Shown piece after piece: positions 30,668 through 38,334 of a DNA stretch of 64,000 nt (position 1 is its first letter; every line of letters starts with the position of its first letter). The position numbers and the translations under genes are program-made. This DNA is from a virus (Duplodnaviria > Heunggongvirae > Uroviricota > Caudoviricetes): IMG/VR virus record IMGVR_UViG_3300049215_000772, positions 1-64,000 of that record, one strand, 5' to 3'. The notes beneath the pieces were generated by a model, which did no database searches, was not told where the DNA came from, and saw only the letters and a list, made by a program, of their open reading frames with translations.

Positions 30668-32779
30668 ATGATGGAATACGCACCGGAGGTAAAGATGAAT
30701 CACCTGAAGAGAGTGACGGGACTTTTCGACAAGAACAAGTTTCGGCAACTGAACGCTGAGATGAGCATGGCAGAGTATCTTGACCTCTGCTTGAAGAACC
30801 CACGGCTGGGCCGGAATGCCTGGCAGATGATTTACGACATGATTATGGAGGATGGTTCCGAGACTTTCGAGCAATATCGGAAAACCTACACTCACTACAA
30901 CTTTTTCGACGACCCTGAAATCCCCATCATCGGTCTGGCTGAGACGAAGGACGCCTTGGTGAAGTTCATCAAGGGCGCTGCCGGTCACTACGGCACTGAG
31001 AAGCGTGTGCTTCTGTTGCACGGACCTGTCGGTAGCTCCAAGTCCACCATTTGCCGCCTTATCAAGCGGAGACTGGAAAAGTACAGTCACACGGATGCTG
31101 GCGCATGGTACTCCTACAAGTGGGTGAATTTGCCCACGGGTGAGGACGGTATCTACACCAACCCGGAGAACGAGTGCCCACTGCACGAGAATCCACTCAA
31201 GCTGCTTCCTTTGGAAGTGCGTGAGCCTTTCCTGGCGGAAATGAACGCCACCCTATTGGAAATGCAGGAGGCCGACAAGAAGGCGGGTGCCGCCAAGGAA
31301 CACTACACCCTTCGCATGGACGGCGAGTTGAATCCACGCTGCAAGTTGTTCATGAATGAACTGCTCAAGCGTTACCAGGGCGACCTGGAGAAAGTTTTGA
31401 GCGAACACATCGTTGTTGTCCGCAAGGTGTACAGCGAAGTGGATCGTTGTGGTATTGCAACCTTCCAGCCGAAGGATGAGAAGAACCAGGACTCGACCGA
31501 GTTGACGGGCGACATCAACTTCGGCCTCATCTCCAAGTTCGGTTCCGACTCTGACGCCCGTGCCTTCAATTTCGACGGCGAGTTTTGCTGCGGCAATCGT
31601 GGCATGATCGAGTTCATCGAAGCCCTGAAGCTGGATCAGGCGTTCCTGTATGACTTGCTGGGTGCCAGCCAGGAACAAAGCATCAAGCCGAAGAAGTTCA
31701 GCCAGGTGTTGATTGACGAAGCTATCTTCGCCCACACCAACGACGCTGAATACCAGAAGTTGAAGTCCAACCAGTACATGGAAGCCCTTCGTGACCGTAC
31801 CGTGAAGATCACGGTTCCGTACACCCGGAAGTGGGACGAAGAAACCAAGATTCTGGAGAAGGACTACGGCCCCGGCAAGGTTCGTCAACACATCGCTCCT
31901 CACACGAGGGAAATCGCCGCTTTGTGGGCAGTGCTGACCCGCCTCCAGGACGACAAGGATGGCAAACTATCCCTCGTCGAGAAGGCTGAATTGTACAACG
32001 GCAAGCTGCTCCCTGGTTGGACCGAGGACGCAGTGAAGGAACTGATGGACAAGCACCCCGAAGAAGGCATGACCGGCGTATCCGTGCGGTACGTTCAGGA
32101 CAAGTTCTCGAACTGCCTGTCCAACAACCACGAGTACGTCAATACCTTCATGGTGTTGAACGAACTGCGTGATGGTTTGCACGACTCGTCGCTGCTGACG
32201 AACAAGGATCAGGTTAGCCGGTACATTACCTGCATCGACCTGGCTCTCAAGAAGCTGACGGAAATCCTCAAGGCTGAAGTCCAGAAGGCTTTGGTCGGCG
32301 ATGAGGATTCGGCGATCAGGCTGTGCGCCAACTACATCGACAATGTGATGGCCTACATCAACAAGGCCAAGGTCCGTGACAAGGTGACGGGCCAGGACCG
32401 CAAGCCGGATGAGCGGCTGATGCGGCAGGTGGAAGAGAAGATCGAGATTCCCGACCAGGGAGCCGATGACTTCCGCCGTCAGATCGCTGCCTTCATCGGT
32501 GATCTTGCTCACAAGGGCAAGCAGTTCAAGTGGGATAGCAATCCGAAGCTGAAGAAGGCTTTGGAAATGAAGCTGTTCGAGGATGTGAAGGACACCATCA
32601 AGTTGTCGGCCCTCAATGTGTCGGCGGCTACGGTCGTGGACAAGGACATCCAGCAGCGTATCCAGGATTTGAAGACCAGACTCATTAACCAGTATGGTTA
32701 CAACGAACAGAGCGCAACTGACGTGCTGGACTTCGTTGGCGGCATCTTCGCCCGTGGCGACCTGGCAGAAGAAGAGTAA
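30668..32779 (+). CDS. prkA: PrkA/YeaG-family serine protein kinase (AAA+ N-domain + kinase domain)
   Basis: 'LLLHGPVGSSKST' P-loop, 'GNRGMIEFIEALK', 'AIFAHTNDAEY', and the PrkA C-domain; colinear with E. coli YeaG. Confidence 0.9.
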   Translation: MMEYAPEVKMNHLKRVTGLFDKNKFRQLNAEMSMAEYLDLCLKNPRLGRNAWQMIYDMIMEDGSETFEQYRKTYTHYNFFDDPEIPIIGLAETKDALVKFIKGAAGHYGTEKRVLLLHGPVGSSKSTICRLIKRRLEKYSHTDAGAWYSYKWVNLPTGEDGIYTNPENECPLHENPLKLLPLEVREPFLAEMNATLLEMQEADKKAGAAKEHYTLRMDGELNPRCKLFMNELLKRYQGDLEKVLSEHIVVVRKVYSEVDRCGIATFQPKDEKNQDSTELTGDINFGLISKFGSDSDARAFNFDGEFCCGNRGMIEFIEALKLDQAFLYDLLGASQEQSIKPKKFSQVLIDEAIFAHTNDAEYQKLKSNQYMEALRDRTVKITVPYTRKWDEETKILEKDYGPGKVRQHIAPHTREIAALWAVLTRLQDDKDGKLSLVEKAELYNGKLLPGWTEDAVKELMDKHPEEGMTGVSVRYVQDKFSNCLSNNHEYVNTFMVLNELRDGLHDSSLLTNKDQVSRYITCIDLALKKLTEILKAEVQKALVGDEDSAIRLCANYIDNVMAYINKAKVRDKVTGQDRKPDERLMRQVEEKIEIPDQGADDFRRQIAAFIGDLAHKGKQFKWDSNPKLKKALEMKLFEDVKDTIKLSALNVSAATVVDKDIQQRIQDLKTRLINQYGYNEQSATDVLDFVGGIFARGDLAEEE

Positions 32780-32793
32780 TCCCGTCTTAGGGT

Positions 32794-32841
32794 GGGGCGG
32801 GCGGCTTCCTTCAGTCCACGAGGCCGCACCGCCCCTTTTTT
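32794..32841 (+). terminator. rho-independent terminator after prkA
   Basis: 12-bp GC stem (one bulge) 'ggggcgggcggc...gccgcaccgcccc' followed by TTTTTT. Confidence 0.6.
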
Positions 32842-32855
32842 CAAGGTGGAGAGAC

Positions 32856-33071
32856 ATGAACAACCACTGGTTGAATGAAGCAAAGTACAAGAAGATGTTC
32901 AAGGAGATCGACGAGGCTGCAATGGAAGCCTGGGGTGAAGATGGCACGCTGGCCGATCTCATCAACTCCTTGGATGACGAGCAAACGGCGCTTTTGATGG
33001 GAATGAAGATCAAGGATGTTGCCGCCGACCTTGACGACTATGAGTTCGGCTTGACTCTCATCAAGCCATAA
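32856..33071 (+). CDS. small acidic protein
   Basis: GGTGGAGAG RBS; 71 aa. Confidence 0.4.
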   Translation: MNNHWLNEAKYKKMFKEIDEAAMEAWGEDGTLADLINSLDDEQTALLMGMKIKDVAADLDDYEFGLTLIKP

Positions 33072-33091
33072 CAACTAACAGGTAAACAACA

Positions 33092-34564
33092 ATGGACGAA
33101 TTTCAAGACTTTATCGACGTTTCTTGTCAAAGCGGCATTATTGAAGAATTGGCGAACAATAACTGTCCGTTTCTGTCGTTACTTTGTGAGCTAATTGACA
33201 ATGTGGCAGCAGAATTGGAACATTGTCAGACCGCCCGTGTTCACATCAAAATTGGTGGCCCTTGGACGACTATTGCCTCAAACAACAGTAAAGTCCTTGA
33301 TCTACAACAGGCATACATGGAGGTTTCTGATAACGCAACTGGCATTAAGTCTGACCGGCTTGCTCATTGTTTGTCGCTGGCTGCGAAACCGGAAAGCAGT
33401 GGTACGTTGCATGAGCATGGGCTGGGCATGAAGACGGCCATCATGAGTCTTGGTAAGTTGGATTATCTCATCACTAAGACGAAGGATGAGGATTTTGCTT
33501 CTCGCATCGACGAACTTACCATTGGTAAAATTCTGCGGCGCAAAGATACTGATACTTTCAAAAAAGGCGAAAGTGGCACGATCATTCGCCTCAAGAACTT
33601 GAAGCCGAAGGTTTACAAAGAGAAGCGATTGTATCTGAGGAATGTTATCGACCACCTTGGCGCTCGCTACGCCCGGCTTCTCACCAAGAACCAAATGACC
33701 GGACGCAAATTGGACATCCAATTTGATTTGCTCGATGAAAACGACAATGTGCGTGATAGCTGGACAATTCAGCCTTGTTTTCCTTTCTACGAAAACAACG
33801 GACGCAACATATTGAAAGAAGAGTTCGGCGGCAATAATTGGGGAGCGCAGCTTGAATTTGGATTCACTCCTTCTGAGTCAGAGTATATCCAAAATGGACT
33901 TGAGGTTCCGGCCAACTCCCATCCTTACAAACGGAATTGTCGGGTGATTGATGTTGTTCACCATGATAGAGTTCTTTGTCGGCTGGGAGCAGATGATTTG
34001 TACCCAGGCTCTCACTATATGTTTGCTCCATTTGTTGGCGTTCTTACTTTGAGGTATGGTTTTCGTACTTCGATGACCAAGGATGGGGTTTTGCGAGATG
34101 AGAACTGGAATGAACTTCTCGAAAAAGTGGTGGATGTCACCAAGGGACTTGTGGAGGAGTATGTTCGACGATACGAACGGCTCACCCAGGACGAAAAAGA
34201 CTACCGAGATCAGTTGTATCAAATTCAAACTAAAGGAGAGGACAAGGAGGTATTGAAAGAGTTTGCTGTTGAGGGAACTGATGGCAACATTGATTTGTTG
34301 GTCAATGACGAAGTGTGGGAACTCAAGGCAGAACAGGCCCAAGGGATTGATGTGTACCAGGTGTTGTATTACATCGACACCTGCGATAAAGCCAAGAAAA
34401 CTAGCGGACGCCTGATTGCTCCGTCTTTTTCTGACGGGTGTAAATGGACTGCCCAACATTTGAAAAAGACAAGGAAGGTTGATGTGAAGTTGAAGACATT
34501 TGAGGATGTCGGTTTGGTGAAGGGTATTGCAGCGAAAAAGAAAGCAAAAAAGAAGTCCATGTGA
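33092..34564 (+). CDS. GHKL (Bergerat-fold, HATPase_c) ATPase
   Basis: N-box 'ELIDNVAAE', G1 'SDNATGI', G2 'HGLGMKTA'. Confidence 0.6.
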   Translation: MDEFQDFIDVSCQSGIIEELANNNCPFLSLLCELIDNVAAELEHCQTARVHIKIGGPWTTIASNNSKVLDLQQAYMEVSDNATGIKSDRLAHCLSLAAKPESSGTLHEHGLGMKTAIMSLGKLDYLITKTKDEDFASRIDELTIGKILRRKDTDTFKKGESGTIIRLKNLKPKVYKEKRLYLRNVIDHLGARYARLLTKNQMTGRKLDIQFDLLDENDNVRDSWTIQPCFPFYENNGRNILKEEFGGNNWGAQLEFGFTPSESEYIQNGLEVPANSHPYKRNCRVIDVVHHDRVLCRLGADDLYPGSHYMFAPFVGVLTLRYGFRTSMTKDGVLRDENWNELLEKVVDVTKGLVEEYVRRYERLTQDEKDYRDQLYQIQTKGEDKEVLKEFAVEGTDGNIDLLVNDEVWELKAEQAQGIDVYQVLYYIDTCDKAKKTSGRLIAPSFSDGCKWTAQHLKKTRKVDVKLKTFEDVGLVKGIAAKKKAKKKSM

Positions 34565-35289
34565 TATTTGAAAGTTCTACACGAGCGCAGTACAATATGG
34601 GTATGCCAAACCATATATGCCAACAATGCGGTGTAGAATTCTACAACAAGAATAGCGGTGCTAGGTACTGCTCGCAGCAATGTACCAAGAACAGCACCAA
34701 GAAAGGCACGAGCGGCAAATGCTACAACTGCGGTAAGGAAGTTTATATTCCGAACCATAAGAACATCCAGAAGACCTTCTGTAGTTGGGAATGCAACATG
34801 GAGGCCCAGCGCAAGAGACGCCCGACTAGGGTGTGTAAGCACTGCGGAAGGGAATTCAAGAAGAAGGCCAGGAGCAATGCGATGTTTTGTTCTCCAGCCT
34901 GCCGTTTGAGTTCAGAATACAACATGCAACAACTTGCCGCCATGAGGAAGAAACAGGCCGGCAAGAAGCCCACCAAATTGGAATTATTGGGATATAGCAT
35001 CCTCGATGAGATCGGCCTGGAGTATGAGAAACAGTACATATTCGACAGATTTGTGGCCGATGCCTATGTTAAAGAACTGAACCTGATCGTACAATTTGAT
35101 GGCGATTACTGGCACGGCAATACCAGTAAGTTTCCGACGCTCTCGGAGTTTCAGATGAAGCAAACAGAAAGAGATCGCCGAGCAGATGCAAAAGCCCGTG
35201 ATCTTGGGCATCGAGTCATCCGGTTGTGGGAATCGGATGTCTACAAGGATCAACAAGCAGTGAAGAACCGCATACTGTTGAAGGAGTGA
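34561..35289 (+). CDS. zinc-ribbon + Vsr-like endonuclease (putative Vsr-family homing/nicking endonuclease)
   Basis: Several CxxC pairs at the N-terminus; C-terminus 'LIVQFDGDYWHGN...ERDRRADAKARDLGHRVIRLWESDV' matches the Vsr 'F.DGCFWHG...ERD.RD...L...GW.V..VWE'; GTG at 34561 or ATG at 34597. Confidence 0.6.
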   Translation: MIFESSTRAQYNMGMPNHICQQCGVEFYNKNSGARYCSQQCTKNSTKKGTSGKCYNCGKEVYIPNHKNIQKTFCSWECNMEAQRKRRPTRVCKHCGREFKKKARSNAMFCSPACRLSSEYNMQQLAAMRKKQAGKKPTKLELLGYSILDEIGLEYEKQYIFDRFVADAYVKELNLIVQFDGDYWHGNTSKFPTLSEFQMKQTERDRRADAKARDLGHRVIRLWESDVYKDQQAVKNRILLKE

Positions 35290-35292
35290 AAG

Positions 35293-36513
35293 ATGCCCCG
35301 GAGGATCGAAGAAGATCACAAAGATTTTCGAGACGTAGTTTCAGGAAAGATTCGCAAAGCCCTCAAGAAGTTCATCAAGTCGGGCCAGATATTCCGCAAC
35401 CGTGGAAAGAACGGCAAGATTTCCATTTCTATCCCCAAGATTGACATCCCTCACATCGTCTACGGCGACACGGGAGAAGGTGTTGGGCGTGGTCCTGGAA
35501 AGCCCGGTGACGTGATTGGCAAAGACCCGCAACCTGGACAGGGTGCAGGCCAGGAGTCCAGCGAAGGTATCACCATCAATCTGGACCTGGAAGAAGTCCT
35601 CAAGTTCATGCAGGACGACTTGGCCCTGCCGAACCTGAAGCCGAAGCCGAACGAGACGTTTGAAGACATCAAGATCAAGTACAACAACATCTCGCTGGTC
35701 GGCCCCGAAAGCCTGCGTCACAACCGCAGAACTTTCCTCCAGGCCATCAAGCGACAGGCGTGCATGGGCACCCTGGATGATCTGCACATGGTTCCTGGCT
35801 GCAAGGAACCCAGGAAGATCATCACTCCCTGGCCGGCTGACAAGCGTTACCGCCAGTACAACGAAATCCGCATTCCGTCGAGCAACGCCCTTATCGTCTA
35901 CGCCCGTGATGGGTCAGGAAGTATGGATGCTGTGAAGTGCGACATCGTGTCGGACATGGCGTGGTGGATCGACGTGTGGATCAGAAGGTTTTACACCCGT
36001 GTCGAGCGCATGTATGTCTGGCATGACTCCGCTGCGATGGAAGTGGACGAAGAGAAATTCTACAAGTACAGGTTCGGCGGCGGTACTACCTGTTCGTCTG
36101 CGTTGAAGTTTATCACCAAGCAGTTCGAGAACAGGTTCCCACCGCAGAAGTGGAATGTCTACGTTTTCTATTTCTCGGACGGCGAGAATTGGGGCGAAGA
36201 TAATGAAGTGTTCATCAACACCCTGAAGGAAGAGTTCCAGCCTCATATTGTGAACTTTGTCGGCATCACGCAGATTCTTGCTTACAATTACGATGGCTCC
36301 CTGAAGCATATTGTCGATGAGGCGATTAAGTCCAACATACTCGACAAGGATCAGGTGAGAACAGTGTCCATTGGTCAGGAAACTACGCCGGCTGCTGGTA
36401 GTCCGTGGAGTCCGCCCAGCTTGACGGAAGAACAACGCAACGAACAAGTGCTGCGGGCCATCAAGCAACTGCTGGGCAGCAAGAAGTCCGACAAGGAGGA
36501 GAAGGACGACTGA
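35293..36513 (+). CDS. yeaH: YeaH/YhbH (DUF444, vWA-like) protein
   Basis: 'DLALPNLK', 'DGSGSMD', 'SDGENWGED' match E. coli YeaH 'DLALPNLK', 'DVSGSMD', 'SDGDNW'. Confidence 0.85.
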   Translation: MPRRIEEDHKDFRDVVSGKIRKALKKFIKSGQIFRNRGKNGKISISIPKIDIPHIVYGDTGEGVGRGPGKPGDVIGKDPQPGQGAGQESSEGITINLDLEEVLKFMQDDLALPNLKPKPNETFEDIKIKYNNISLVGPESLRHNRRTFLQAIKRQACMGTLDDLHMVPGCKEPRKIITPWPADKRYRQYNEIRIPSSNALIVYARDGSGSMDAVKCDIVSDMAWWIDVWIRRFYTRVERMYVWHDSAAMEVDEEKFYKYRFGGGTTCSSALKFITKQFENRFPPQKWNVYVFYFSDGENWGEDNEVFINTLKEEFQPHIVNFVGITQILAYNYDGSLKHIVDEAIKSNILDKDQVRTVSIGQETTPAAGSPWSPPSLTEEQRNEQVLRAIKQLLGSKKSDKEEKDD

Positions 36514-36749
36514 TGTTTTACTACTGTATGGCCTGCGGTGAGGAGTTGGAGTCACCAGGAATAGGGTATTACTATTCCCAAGAGTGTAAGAAGTGTAACA
36601 AGTTCAACGTCAGTGTATATTGGTATGGCTACGATGTAAACATTGACGACAAGTTCTTCCATTTTGATGAATCTGGCTATGGGAACAGGGAAAGCCAACA
36701 AGCCTTAGAGGAATACCTCAAGCAAAGGAGCGAGCAAAATGGGCAATAA
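36512..36749 (+). CDS. small zinc-ribbon protein coupled to yeaH
   Basis: TGATG overlap with the yeaH stop; 'CMACGEE...CKKCNK'. Confidence 0.45.
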
Positions 36750-38334
36750 GTTCATGCACGGATCGAGCATCTTGCTCGGCGACAATACAGTTCCCGGCGT
36801 GCAACTCCCAAAGGAGATGAAGGAAAACGTCCCCATCATCCTTCAGGCTTGTCGGGATTGGGGGTTGGATTTCTACCCCACAGTGGTCCAACTGCTGACC
36901 TACGACGAAATCTCCGAGATCGCTGCCTACGGCGGCTTCCCGGTCAGGTATCCTCATTGGCAGTTCGGTATGGAGTACGAAGAACTTCAGCGGGGCTATG
37001 AGTTTGGGATGCACAAGATTTACGAGATGGTCATCAACACCAATCCCTGCTACCAGTGGTTGCTGAGTTCCAACAGTCTGGAAGACAACCTGACCGTCGT
37101 GGCTCATGCTACAGGGCACAATGACTTCTTCAAGAACAACATCCATTTCAGCGCCACCGACACCAACATGCTGAACAAGATGGCGAACCACGGCACCCGT
37201 ATTCGCCGTTACATGACCAGGTGGGGCAAGGAGCGTGTTGTTGAGTTCATCGACCATGTTCTGCGGCTGGAGACGTTGATCGACGGGGCTGAGGCGTGGA
37301 CACAGAAAACGATCCGGGACAGGAACCTTTCGGATCAAAGGAAGTACCGCCATCCGAGAAGGTTGAAGGTGAGCAAGGAACGGCTCTACATGGAACCGTT
37401 CATCAACACACGGGACTTCCGCCAGGAAGAAAACAAGCGGATTTCCAAGCTGGACACGGCGGACGAAATTGGCCTGTTCACTGATCCGACCAAGGATATT
37501 CTTGGTTTCCTGCGGGACAATGCTCCTCTCAAACCGTGGCAGCAGGACATTGTTGCCATGTTGTATGAAGAAAGTTTGTACTTCTATCCGCAAAGACAAA
37601 CTAAGGTAATGAACGAAGGGTGGGCCTCGCTGACCGACCATATTATCATGGCCCGGCAGGGTTATATCGCCCTGGGTCAGAAACAGCATGATATGGGTAT
37701 TGTTGAGTATGCCGCTCACAAGATGGGAGTTCTTGGCGGCAAGTACAGCATGAACCCGTACAAGCTGGGCTTCTACTTGTTCCTGGACATTGAAGAAAGA
37801 TGGAACAAGGGCCAGTTCGGTACGGAGTGGGATGAGTGCGACGACATCAGGAAGAAGGAAAAGTGGGACACTGGCGCAATGCTCGGCAAGGAGAAGATTT
37901 TCGAGATCAGGAAGTATTATGACGACCTGACTTTCCTGAATGAGTTCTTCACCGAGGACTTCTGCCGGGCACAGGAATACTTCTACTGGAAGCACTATCC
38001 GAATGGTGAGTACCGATTGGAGCATCGTGACTTCAAGGAAATCAAGGCTGGGTTGATGCGCCGCCACCTGAACGGAGGGTTGCCTTCCATCAAGCTGACT
38101 GAGCCGAACTACCGTGGCAAGGGGTTCATGATGCTCCAGCATGATTGGGACGGGCGTGCGATTTACGATCCGTATGTTCGTGATGTTATGACTTCGTTGC
38201 GATTCTTGTGGGGCAACGACATTTTCTTGGCAACGAAGGACGATGATGGCCGAGAAGCCATTTATGGTTGCTATGGAACTGCCGAGGATGATGTTGAATT
38301 GGTTTCCCGCAAGGACCATATGAAGGATTGGTAA
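36739..38334 (+). CDS. spoVR: SpoVR/YcgB-family protein
   Basis: 'WGLDFYP...AAYGGFPVRYPHWQFGMEYE', 'HATGHNDFFKNN' and full-length colinearity with SpoVR. Confidence 0.85.
   Translation: MGNKFMHGSSILLGDNTVPGVQLPKEMKENVPIILQACRDWGLDFYPTVVQLLTYDEISEIAAYGGFPVRYPHWQFGMEYEELQRGYEFGMHKIYEMVINTNPCYQWLLSSNSLEDNLTVVAHATGHNDFFKNNIHFSATDTNMLNKMANHGTRIRRYMTRWGKERVVEFIDHVLRLETLIDGAEAWTQKTIRDRNLSDQRKYRHPRRLKVSKERLYMEPFINTRDFRQEENKRISKLDTADEIGLFTDPTKDILGFLRDNAPLKPWQQDIVAMLYEESLYFYPQRQTKVMNEGWASLTDHIIMARQGYIALGQKQHDMGIVEYAAHKMGVLGGKYSMNPYKLGFYLFLDIEERWNKGQFGTEWDECDDIRKKEKWDTGAMLGKEKIFEIRKYYDDLTFLNEFFTEDFCRAQEYFYWKHYPNGEYRLEHRDFKEIKAGLMRRHLNGGLPSIKLTEPNYRGKGFMMLQHDWDGRAIYDPYVRDVMTSLRFLWGNDIFLATKDDDGREAIYGCYGTAEDDVELVSRKDHMKDW

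Follow-up and report, generated by a model that had tools for sequence, protein, structure and literature searches.

The locus examined here raises the question of whether two genes lying between prkA and yeaH of a huge phage extend the PrkA-YeaH-SpoVR module or merely occupy the space between its genes. The DNA analysed, referred to below as the window, is a stretch of 64,000 nt, and all coordinates are given on its plus strand, on which every feature described lies. The slot is flanked on the left by prkA (30668..32779; 703 aa; Pfam AAA_PrkA, 4.5e-73, and PrkA, 1.1e-74) and on the right by yeaH/DUF444 (35293..36513; 406 aa; Pfam DUF444, 3.3e-62). The list of open reading frames places between them an acidic ORF of 71 aa (32857..33071), a GHKL ORF of 490 aa (33092..34564) and a zinc-ribbon/Vsr-like ORF that ends at 35289 and has candidate starts at 34561, 34597 and 34603; the latter two are positioned as described in an earlier, sequence-only reading of this DNA. 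Directly 3' of the prkA stop codon, a G+C-rich hairpin followed by TTTTTT (32793..32841) was read from the sequence as a terminator-like element, which was missed by the terminator scan because its loop exceeds 8 nt, and which may act as a terminator.

Comparison with the closest relative (L011; PrkA 87% identical to that of the window) using blastn delimited the insert. DNA homology stops at 33071, at the stop codon of the acidic ORF, and restarts at 35293, and in L011 the acidic ORF and a 9-nt spacer are all that separates prkA from yeaH; the whole insert (33072..35292) comprises 2221 nt that replace this spacer. The acidic ORF is indeed present ahead of the GHKL gene, as the sequence-only reading had reported, but it is a resident, clade-specific gene outside the insert, with homologues detected by a homologue HMM in 27 related loci, in each case after prkA. 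Its product (16 D+E versus 7 K+R) matched no Pfam or PHROG family.

The composition of the insert is foreign to the window: its GC content is 0.46, compared with 0.511 ± 0.022 for the window, representing the lowest 2.2-kb stretch (0.24% of windows were as low). The GC3 values of the GHKL and Vsr-like genes are 0.49 and 0.59, respectively, versus 0.70-0.75 for the flanking genes. The slot itself is highly variable among relatives. Both prkA and yeaH were present in 78 of 81 related loci, with an intergenic gap ranging from 12 to 2728 nt (100 nt or less in 33 loci). Other occupants of the junction include an HNH endonuclease in L087 (phrog_2255, 2.7e-14), an ORF with a weak match to an ApaLI-like nuclease in L154 and, in some relatives, unrelated ORFs, while spoVR of L012 is interrupted by two LAGLIDADG inteins. 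Neither a near-identity DNA search with 30-39 kb of the window nor a search with the GHKL protein returned a match in 50,697 phage records, and the best PrkA match in these records (LR756511.1) was 65%; the phage is thus without a close relative in that collection.

The reading we favour, and consider reasonably probable, is that two genes, each acquired horizontally and independently of the other, make up the 2.2-kb block, which occupies a hypervariable slot in a conserved module of huge phages and does not extend the PrkA system. The evidence for each gene is considered in turn below.

The GHKL protein was modelled by AF2 with a pLDDT of 86. Its N-terminal part (residues 1-~175; 33092..33616) was identified by Pfam, alignments and the AF2 model as a Bergerat-fold GHKL ATPase domain with the characteristic alpha/beta sandwich, bearing out that part of the sequence-only reading. 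The N-box (E33, D36 and N37), G1 (D80 and G84) and G2 (E108-H109-G110, G112 and K114) residues are invariant or nearly so in alignments of 10 and 54 sequences, and the G2 box adjoins an ATP lid (residues 98-108) modelled with low confidence. Pfam HATPase_c_3 matched 54 of 54 family members, and the family profile matched MLH1 among PDB entries (8e-5). The ATPase domain is followed by an S5-like transducer domain (residues ~176-335; 33617..34096), in which the nearly invariant K330 represents the conserved basic residue reaching the nucleotide, as described for MORC and paraMORC proteins. A long single helix (residues 337-382; 34097..34240), supported by AF2 secondary structure and the family alignment, links the transducer to the remainder of the protein and holds the nearly invariant E368; this helix may contribute to dimerisation.

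The C-terminal part contains a NucS/RecB-like PD-(D/E)xK nuclease domain (residues ~384-475; 34241..34516), with matches to NucS, Cas4 and AF1548. Its residues D401, E410-x-K412 and Q423-x-x-x-Y427, together with E368, correspond to the nuclease motif of paraMORC3-type proteins. Across 54 divergent members, E33, D36, N37, D80, G84, G112, K114, K330, E368, D401, E410, K412, Q423 and Y427 are all conserved. This nuclease domain had been overlooked in the sequence-only reading, and its presence changes the identity of the GHKL protein from an ATPase to a putative combined ATPase and nuclease. The protein ends in a Lys-rich tail (34517..34564, stop codon included), of which residues 477-490 were modelled with a pLDDT below 50.

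An exhaustive profile search, in which the best 150 of 1747 matches were considered, yielded 95 representatives of this family at E < 1e-30, mostly of 480-550 aa; a word-indexed search started from the 54-sequence alignment contributed scarcely any further members. Members were found in phages, Bacillota, Chloroflexota and Acidobacteriota. Bacterial chromosomes commonly encode full-length relatives, as does one plasmid, next to methylases and restriction genes: the bacterial neighbours include C5 and MT-A70 methyltransferases, HNH and BglII-like nucleases and integrases, and one member lies within an island holding RES and HEPN_AbiV genes. The closest relatives, P0005 and P0007, are encoded on short contigs that offer no usable gene context. 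No neighbouring family was common to the 21 full-length GHKL loci, apart from synteny in three related phages, and none of prkA, yeaH, spoVR or the Vsr gene was present in 43 loci with GHKL relatives. The protein matched no PADLOC or NCBIfam model, and DUF4263 (PF14082), the hallmark of Shedu, was not detected in 54 members; the analogy to defence systems is therefore one of architecture and genomic context. On these two grounds, the findings point to a DNA-attacking enzyme of a defence or restriction type.

A role in repair or recombination, in which a MutL-like ATPase would be combined with a NucS-like nuclease acting on mismatched or branched DNA to help maintain the 673-kb genome, was considered in the light of the likeness of the protein to MutL/MLH1 and NucS/EndoMS. 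It would also suit the three syntenic phages (L005, L091 and L092), where the homologue is flanked by the genes for DNA polymerase A and a UvsX-like recombinase, a position explained as readily by repair or recombination as by conflict; however, these phages are related and amount to a single observation. The gene is missing from all of the approximately 78 related huge phages, including the one with 87% PrkA identity, its distribution is sporadic, its composition is foreign to the window, and the bacterial contexts abound in islands, methylases and integrases. We consequently regard a repair function as unlikely.

The second gene of the insert is preceded by a non-coding leader (34553..34602) that is conserved as the same block in L153 and L154, although the upstream gene differs there. 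The leader contains TTGAAA (34568-34573) and, after 17 nt, TACAAT (34591-34596), a sigma-70-like arrangement with a match score of 10/12, and the ATG at 34603 is situated 6 nt past the -10 hexamer. As the overall scan for promoters and terminators did not exceed chance (4 promoter-like sites versus 3.1 expected), only this site, conserved across phages, was retained; judged from its sequence, the leader may function as a promoter and give rise to a leaderless mRNA. Translation probably starts at ATG 34603 and not at GTG 34561, because close homologues begin with MPN or MPY; the product would then comprise 228 aa. Initiation at GTG 34561, with a 4-nt overlap serving translational coupling to the GHKL gene, was rejected, since the overlapping nucleotides are part of the leader that is conserved under different upstream genes.

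The N-terminal part of the encoded protein (34603..34920) was shown by alignments to consist of three FCS/MYM-type zinc-ribbon units (C-x2-C ... [FY]-C-S-x2-C), the Cys columns of which are invariant in alignments of 15 and 28 sequences. Several distant homologues carry Pfam PF06467 (zf-FCS) and just one carries NUMOD3, and the region matches PHROG families labelled 'HNH endonuclease' and 'homing endonuclease'; the ribbons are presumed to bind DNA. The C-terminal part (34960..35289) represents a nuclease domain with the Vsr superfamily (Vsr/DUF559) fold that retains the catalytic Asp and His. Its characteristic residues, numbered from GTG 34561, are D167, Q178-F-D180-G-D182-Y-W-H185, D205, R221 and W223-E224. 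The resemblance to I-Bth0305I proposed in the sequence-only reading was upheld at the level of the fold, which matches both Vsr and I-Bth0305I, but the sequence is nearer to true Vsr (3.1e-7 versus 0.067 for I-Bth0305I) and the N-terminus is devoid of NUMOD or HTH elements. In the alignment to Vsr, 'HGCFWHHHHC' pairs with 'DGDYWHGN', so that the Cys and His ligands of the zinc site in the Vsr catalytic domain are missing.

The two genes of the insert lie side by side and share a strand, and the final ~10 nt of the GHKL gene, including its TGA, fall within the conserved leader of the endonuclease gene, so the two may be co-expressed. This arrangement, together with a GC content below that of the flanks for both genes, would be compatible with a single two-gene restriction or repair cassette, in which the ATPase licenses nicking by the Vsr-like protein in a manner comparable to MutL and Vsr in Escherichia coli; neighbourhoods of MORC and paraMORC genes, moreover, often hold Vsr-superfamily endonucleases and cytosine methylases (PMC2292703). 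However, five other lineages carry the Vsr-like gene at this site but lack the GHKL gene, and comparison with L153 showed the GHKL gene to be a clean 1.5-kb indel (33072-34552). A Vsr-family HMM found no match in the 43 GHKL-relative loci, the leader is retained regardless of the upstream gene, the GC3 values of the two genes are unequal, and no methyltransferase gene is adjacent in the window, where none was identified at 28-40 kb. A joint cassette is accordingly quite improbable.

The suggestion that the Vsr-like gene is a mobile insertion was corroborated by its distribution. Homologues with 50-66% identity abut yeaH in L089/L090, L153, L154, L155/L156 and L157, and in all six carrying lineages (the window included) the gene abuts or overlaps the start of yeaH. 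The carriers other than the window constitute five scattered tips in the PrkA tree, each with endonuclease-free nearest neighbours, and L014 and L157, the flanks of which share 87-89% nt identity, provide a natural pair of an empty and a filled site, with 765 nt of endonuclease in place of 240 nt. The GC content of the gene is below that of its flanks in L089 as well as in the window. A fixed site, patchy presence and insertion at conserved genes are the behaviour of a mobile element, and the conserved 5' end of yeaH (MPRRIEEDHKDFRDV) is likely to be the neighbourhood of the endonuclease target. The amino-acid identity of the endonucleases declines in step with that of the flanks, and much of this history could therefore reflect vertical descent and loss and not active homing.

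In actinophages such as Camster, homologues are located antisense within a DNA methylase gene, which is cut into pieces of 398 and 84 aa. As these homologues adjoin methylases, a Dcm-Vsr repair pairing was considered, and was rejected since the ORF runs antisense to a methylase gene and interrupts it, and the DPPY motif of this methylase is indicative of the N6/N4 type and not C5. More generally, a true very-short-patch repair nickase acting for a phage cytosine methylase was weighed as an alternative; against it stand the lack of an adjacent methylase in the window, the three extra zinc-ribbon units, the single intergenic site with its patchy occupancy, and a TIGR00632 (vsr) score of 31 bits, below the cut-off of 97.85. 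We hold such a function to be very doubtful.

Under the favoured reading of two independent acquisitions, the region 34553-35289 would represent a free-standing homing-endonuclease unit fixed at a site just upstream of yeaH, in which a promoter-like leader of its own precedes the gene for a Vsr-fold nuclease whose three FCS-type zinc ribbons presumably recognise DNA. The endonuclease probably cuts the endonuclease-free junctions of co-infecting relatives, after which the gene would be copied in by recombinational repair. A GAAGGAG sequence within the last endonuclease codons (35280..35286) was read as the yeaH Shine-Dalgarno sequence, and AAGGAG is likewise found inside the 3' end of the homologue in L089; the endonuclease gene would thus supply the yeaH ribosome-binding site, leaving the host module functional. 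The GHKL gene (33092-34564) would constitute separate cargo that entered behind the resident acidic ORF and ahead of the leader of the endonuclease. Its product is proposed to be a single-protein ATP-dependent nuclease composed of a MORC/MutL-like ATPase with transducer, a long helix and a NucS/RecB-like nuclease. By analogy to MutL, MORC and the GHKL-Shedu protein VcSduA, its N-terminal domains would pair on binding ATP and close around DNA as a clamp, and ATP binding would thereby allow the C-terminal nuclease domains, likewise paired, to cleave. The most likely target would be foreign DNA of co-infecting phages or other mobile elements, possibly also the host chromosome, from which the phage would be expected to benefit. 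More speculatively, the slot upstream of the Vsr-type endonuclease could act as a cargo bay in which 'weapon' genes are exchanged (the GHKL-NucS-like gene here and the weak ApaLI-like nuclease in L154), with endonuclease-triggered recombination spreading a Shedu-like exclusion weapon, although we would give this scenario a rather low probability.

The sequence-only reading had offered two other roles for the GHKL protein. As an anti-defence factor, it would, for example, break down signalling molecules or nucleic acids used in host defence; its status as phage-encoded accessory cargo would suit such a role, and there are phage proteins of the GHKL fold, rIIA among them, that act against host exclusion systems. 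The structural matches in BFVD (topoisomerase, rIIA and Hsp90-like proteins) are nevertheless partial, limited to the GHKL part with TM values of at most 0.46, and the combined ATPase and nuclease architecture, along with bacterial chromosomal and plasmid relatives beside methylases and restriction genes, is a signature of defence, making an anti-defence function highly improbable. That the protein assists the PrkA-YeaH-SpoVR module as an accessory partner can be dismissed almost entirely, on the very outcome that the sequence-only reading had named as refuting it, as its one argument is the position between prkA and yeaH in a single genome, whereas the GHKL gene, unlike the acidic ORF, never occurs together with the module in related genomes (absent from ~78 related prkA-yeaH-spoVR loci and five further Vsr-bearing loci, ~85 module loci, with the module equally absent from the 43 GHKL-relative loci), and the same slot is filled by unrelated genes in other phages.

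The tempting lead of a new partner for the poorly understood PrkA-YeaH-SpoVR module is thereby removed, and the insert is best described as an ordinary mobile insertion carrying a member of a moderately interesting, uncharacterised nuclease family. The analysis nonetheless flags what appears, by analogy, to be a compact family of single-protein ATP-dependent nucleases, with ~95 representatives (E < 1e-30) in a search space of 1.84 billion, to which PADLOC and NCBIfam are blind and which shares its architecture with the sole GHKL-Shedu protein that has been validated by experiment. Should the family prove active, the class of GHKL-nuclease immune or conflict enzymes would be broadened, with huge phages added to its carriers. 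In addition, a zinc-ribbon variant of Vsr-type homing endonucleases was defined, with natural filled and empty sites. The phage PrkA module emerges as a magnet for selfish elements, with endonucleases at the prkA-yeaH junction and inteins in spoVR, which is the usual mark of conserved genes that are important to the phage.

Compared with known systems, the endonuclease shares its C-terminal Vsr-like catalytic domain with I-Bth0305I and the EDxHD family (PMC3239194). It differs from I-Bth0305I in that its N-terminus consists of FCS-type zinc ribbons instead of NUMOD/HTH elements and in that its gene occupies an intergenic spacer by itself and is not carried by an intron, and from the EDxHD motif in having Gln at the first position (QFDGDYWH). 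From E. coli Vsr, it is set apart by the added zinc ribbons, the lack of an adjacent C5 methylase, a score under the TIGR00632 cut-off and its behaviour as a site-specific mobile gene.

The GHKL protein lacks the C-terminal dimerisation/endonuclease domain of MutL, having a PD-(D/E)xK nuclease instead, and is without the CW or coiled-coil domains of eukaryotic MORCs. With NucS/EndoMS it shares the C-terminal RecB-like nuclease domain, the NucS matches covering only residues ~385-470; the N-terminal dimerisation and DNA-binding domain of those enzymes is replaced by 335 residues of GHKL and transducer. Set beside the published description of paraMORC3 (Iyer, Abhiman & Aravind 2008; PMC2292703), the protein appears similar in architecture, in that an S5-type transducer follows a GHKL domain whose motifs are intact and the C-terminus adds a RecB-like restriction-endonuclease-fold domain with E-D-ExK; both are also sporadic, laterally mobile and often near methylases, and their genes can stand alone. 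The proteins from which paraMORC3 was originally described came mainly from proteobacteria and Bacteroidetes, whereas the present one occurs in phages, Bacillota, Chloroflexota and Acidobacteriota.

Shedu is distantly related to the NucS-like nuclease lineage (bioRxiv 10.1101/2023.08.10.552762), and the GHKL family differs from it in the lack of DUF4263 (0/54), while resembling it as a single gene with no conserved partner (21 loci). Defence by VcSduA (type I-D Shedu) requires the ATPase residue E27 and the nuclease residue K557 (PMC12137116; bioRxiv 10.1101/2023.08.10.552793), and VcSduA alone has been shown to confer antiphage protection that depends on both nuclease and ATPase residues (PMC12137116). 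It is this protein that the GHKL protein resembles in combining, within one polypeptide and with no obligatory partner, a GHKL ATPase, a middle clamp domain and a C-terminal PD-(D/E)xK nuclease.

ORF mapping and family scans placed prkA (30668-32779, +), the 490-aa GHKL ORF (33092-34564, +), the zinc-ribbon/Vsr ORF (ending at 35289, +), yeaH/DUF444 (35293-36513, +), spoVR (36739-38334) and, after spoVR, a ClpP-like gene in the window; the ORF map also has a 71-aa acidic ORF (32857-33071, +) ahead of the GHKL ORF. The order prkA, acidic ORF, GHKL gene, Vsr-like gene and yeaH proposed in the sequence-only reading was thus upheld, and the N-box, G1 and G2 motifs it had named were found in the GHKL ORF and shown to be conserved among homologues. 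The window derives from a 673-kb contig, i.e. a huge phage, whose nearest deposited relative is the 595-kb uncultured phage LR756511.1 (65% PrkA identity). A strong G+C-rich hairpin followed by six T's was read directly after the prkA stop codon (32793-32841), which suggests that transcription of prkA is separate from that of the insert and the acidic ORF; a promoter/terminator scan of the region missed this hairpin because of its loop of ~17 nt.

It is near certain that the GHKL gene is independent of PrkA. An IMG/VR scan with PrkA yielded 80 related loci, to which LR756511.1 was added; prkA and yeaH are both present in 78 of these loci, separated by 12-2728 nt (≤100 nt in 33 loci), and none of the 78 carries the GHKL gene. 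In the closest relative, L011 (PrkA 87%, YeaH 89%), prkA is followed by the acidic ORF and then, after a 9-nt spacer alone, by yeaH, and blastn homology with the window ends at 33071 and restarts at 35293. Conversely, prkA, yeaH, spoVR and the Vsr gene were absent from all 43 loci encoding relatives of the GHKL protein, and no neighbouring gene was conserved across 21 full-length GHKL loci. The earlier suggestion of a PrkA-module partner is therefore refuted on a ground set beforehand, namely that the ATPase never co-occurs with prkA-yeaH elsewhere. The acidic ORF, found in 27 loci and always after prkA, belongs to the prkA module in this phage clade.

The prkA-yeaH interval represents an insertion hot spot. 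Within the 64 kb, GC content is lowest over the 2.2 kb of the window insert, where GC3 values are 0.49 for the GHKL gene and 0.59 for the Vsr gene; those of prkA, yeaH and spoVR are 0.70-0.75. The same junction holds an HNH endonuclease in L087 (phrog_2255, 2.7e-14) and assorted unrelated ORFs in further relatives. In L154, the acidic ORF and the Vsr endonuclease flank a 165-aa ORF (2003-2500) whose ApaLI-like match is weak (E 5.7e-4; 20.1 bits, below the curated cut-off of 25); it takes the position of the GHKL gene in the window and ends at the conserved TGA of the endonuclease leader. Relative to L153, the GHKL gene constitutes a clean indel (33072-34552). The slot would first have comprised prkA, acidic ORF, endonuclease and yeaH, as in L153 and L157, the GHKL gene inserting subsequently after the acidic ORF and ahead of the endonuclease leader.

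Other junctions harbour further candidate cargo. The 97-aa ORF of L001 (12346-12639) matches both ends of a 196-aa ORF in L081 (from ~10322), sharing MKFYLRD...AWQMFF and ...ILCPGLGTAVG...QMYEAYKAIWL, and is therefore what remains of another cargo gene of the junction after an internal deletion; by eye it resembles a macro-domain protein. L085 contains a DPPY-motif ORF of 306 aa and two paralogous ORFs of ~227 aa (family guessed by eye), and L065 contains, among others, a 238-aa HLGH-motif ORF that by eye resembles class I aminoacyl-tRNA synthetases. The gaps of L026/L042 and L050-L053 hold ORFs of 282 and 270 aa with no family assignment, the former (L026) without a match in PHROGs.

Endonuclease homologues with 50-66% identity were found at the identical site in L089/L090, L153, L154, L155/L156 and L157, abutting or overlapping the yeaH start in every case; the GHKL gene is absent from all of these loci, and the two genes are independent of one another. 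The carriers represent five scattered tips on the PrkA tree, the nearest neighbours of each being endonuclease-free, and in the close pair L014/L157 (flanks 87-89% nt identity) 765 nt of endonuclease sequence stand in place of 240 nt. The gene also has a GC content below that of its flanks, both in the window and in L089. In actinophages such as Camster, a homologue lies antisense inside a DPPY-motif DNA methylase gene, parting a 398-aa piece from an 84-aa C-terminal piece that are contiguous in intact homologues. Its fixed site, its scattered distribution, the filled/empty pair and the split methylase mark the Vsr-like gene as a mobile, site-specific endonuclease, in line with the earlier suspicion of a mobile insertion. 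Endonuclease identity follows that of the flanks, so much of the spread may be old or vertical.

In the Camster locus itself (L152, Mycobacterium phage Camster MW055902.1, 2599-4888), the methylase pieces are genes 54 (398 aa) and 57 (84 aa), the latter corresponding to residues ~409-468 of intact homologues. An insert of ~850 bp causes the split, and its opposite strand codes for a zinc-ribbon/Vsr homologue of full length; in the deposited annotation, gene 55, a 'hypothetical protein', is placed on the methylase strand instead.

The predicted model of the Vsr-like protein (pLDDT 92) matched three structures. In an alignment with Vsr, its catalytic Asp and His and its ERDRR and R-x-WE segments have counterparts, but the Vsr zinc ligands have none. 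The N-terminal half consists of three C-x2-C...[FY]CS-x2-C units with invariant cysteines; distant homologues are annotated as zf-FCS, and one has NUMOD3. A block of ~50 nt upstream of the ORF (34553-34602) is kept in the window, L153 and L154, each with a different upstream gene, and contains TTGAAA-17-TACAAT, the best promoter-like match of the region; the GHKL stop codon (34562-34564) falls within it. Since close homologues start with MPN.../MPY..., ATG 34603 is the likely start, and its position 6 nt past the -10 hexamer is consistent with an mRNA that may be leaderless. At the other end, the last endonuclease codons encode the yeaH ribosome-binding site GAAGGAG in both the window and L089. 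Public gene calls for 34561-35289 conflict, giving either 230 aa from ATG 34597 (P0165) or only the C-terminal 135 aa (P0168, from the 673-kb record, named 'very-short-patch-repair endonuclease'), the latter dropping all three zinc ribbons.

Downstream of yeaH, a 79-aa ORF (36510-36749) with C-x2-C pairs, a GC content of 0.43 and weak zinc-ribbon Pfam matches below cut-off precedes spoVR. It has no homologue in related loci, and in L011 yeaH and spoVR are separated by ~5 nt; it appears to be a second, small insert of the prkA-yeaH-spoVR module. The spoVR gene of L012 (11323-15432) forms one ORF of 1369 aa that contains two large inserts in frame; LAGLIDADG-like motifs (LVGDGSI, MIGDGHI) and Cys...HN junctions make both of them probable inteins. 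Split spoVR matches were likewise observed in L013, L022-L025, L027, L037, L038, L049 and L087; the window spoVR (531 aa) lacks inserts of this kind.

Profile evidence identifies the GHKL protein as a fusion of an ATPase with a nuclease, matching MLH1 at residues 70-177 (8e-5) and, in its C-terminal domain, NucS (1.1e-5), EndoMS (6.4e-4) and Cas4 (1.9e-3). In the structure model, a 46-residue helix (337-382) connects one half to the other, and the protein ends in a Lys-rich tail. Exhaustive profile searching across 1.84 billion representatives returned 1747 matches, 95 of which were below 1e-30, mostly full length (480-550 aa). Among 54 divergent members, (near-)invariant residues comprise E33, D36, N37, D80, G84, E108-H109-G110, G112 and K114 of the ATPase, K330 of the transducer, and E368, D401, E410-x-K412 and Q423-x-x-x-Y427 of the nuclease, so both active sites are under selection.

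The genomic contexts of this family form a pattern of restriction/defence-type accessory genes. Among bacterial members, that of L125 follows a C5 methyltransferase, that of L127 directly follows an MT-A70 methyltransferase, and that of L096 is preceded by HNH and BglII-like nucleases. Integrases adjoin the members in L095 and L004, and the L004 island also contains a Cas3-like helicase, RES and HEPN_AbiV; a further bacterial context is a Priestia plasmid. Phage members occur in another huge phage (L003) and in a T4-like contig (L002), after gp23 and preceded by NUMOD3 and endonuclease-VII/TnsA-like genes. In L125 (5610-9371, a Pseudomonadales MAG), the methyltransferase (Pfam E 3.6e-66), a 261-aa ORF without a family match and a 552-aa GHKL-nuclease homologue run head to tail and may constitute a restriction-modification-like operon. 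A repair role is possible, and the placement of the gene in three related phages, with DNA polymerase A on one side and a UvsX-like recombinase on the other, is compatible with it; a role in conflict stands at about even odds against repair and other rivals.

In the proposed mechanism, the GHKL domains would dimerise in an ATP-driven manner, as in MutL and MORC, and trap DNA, licensing the two NucS-like domains to cut, and the phage would deploy this nuclease against competing DNA. The Vsr-type protein would cut endonuclease-free junctions near the conserved yeaH 5' end, its gene being copied in by recombinational repair. Overall, this account of a composite insertion is moderately favoured, and it would pair a Vsr-type homing endonuclease bearing a new DNA-binding module with an uncharacterised paraMORC3-like ATPase-nuclease as phage cargo.

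According to Iyer et al. 2008 (PMC2292703), the paraMORC3 proteins are defined by GHKL and S5 domains with a C-terminal RecB-like E-D-ExK nuclease, occur sporadically and are frequently associated with restriction-modification genes. The GHKL protein displays every architectural feature of that definition, a likeness at the level of architecture. Type I-D Shedu comprises GHKL-bearing DUF4263 proteins (Gu et al., bioRxiv 10.1101/2023.08.10.552793). Shedu identity was rejected, as DUF4263 was detected in none of the 54 GHKL-family members and PADLOC returned no SduA match; NucS_C was found in two of the 54, and NCBIfam matches were restricted to NucS, MutL and MzaB fragments. As the Shedu nuclease has itself been described as a distant relative of NucS (bioRxiv 10.1101/2023.08.10.552762), the family is best regarded as a variant of the Shedu-type design that is NucS-like. 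By analogy, it probably works like VcSduA, which protects against phages and requires both E27 (ATPase) and K557 (nuclease) (Adams et al., PMC12137116).
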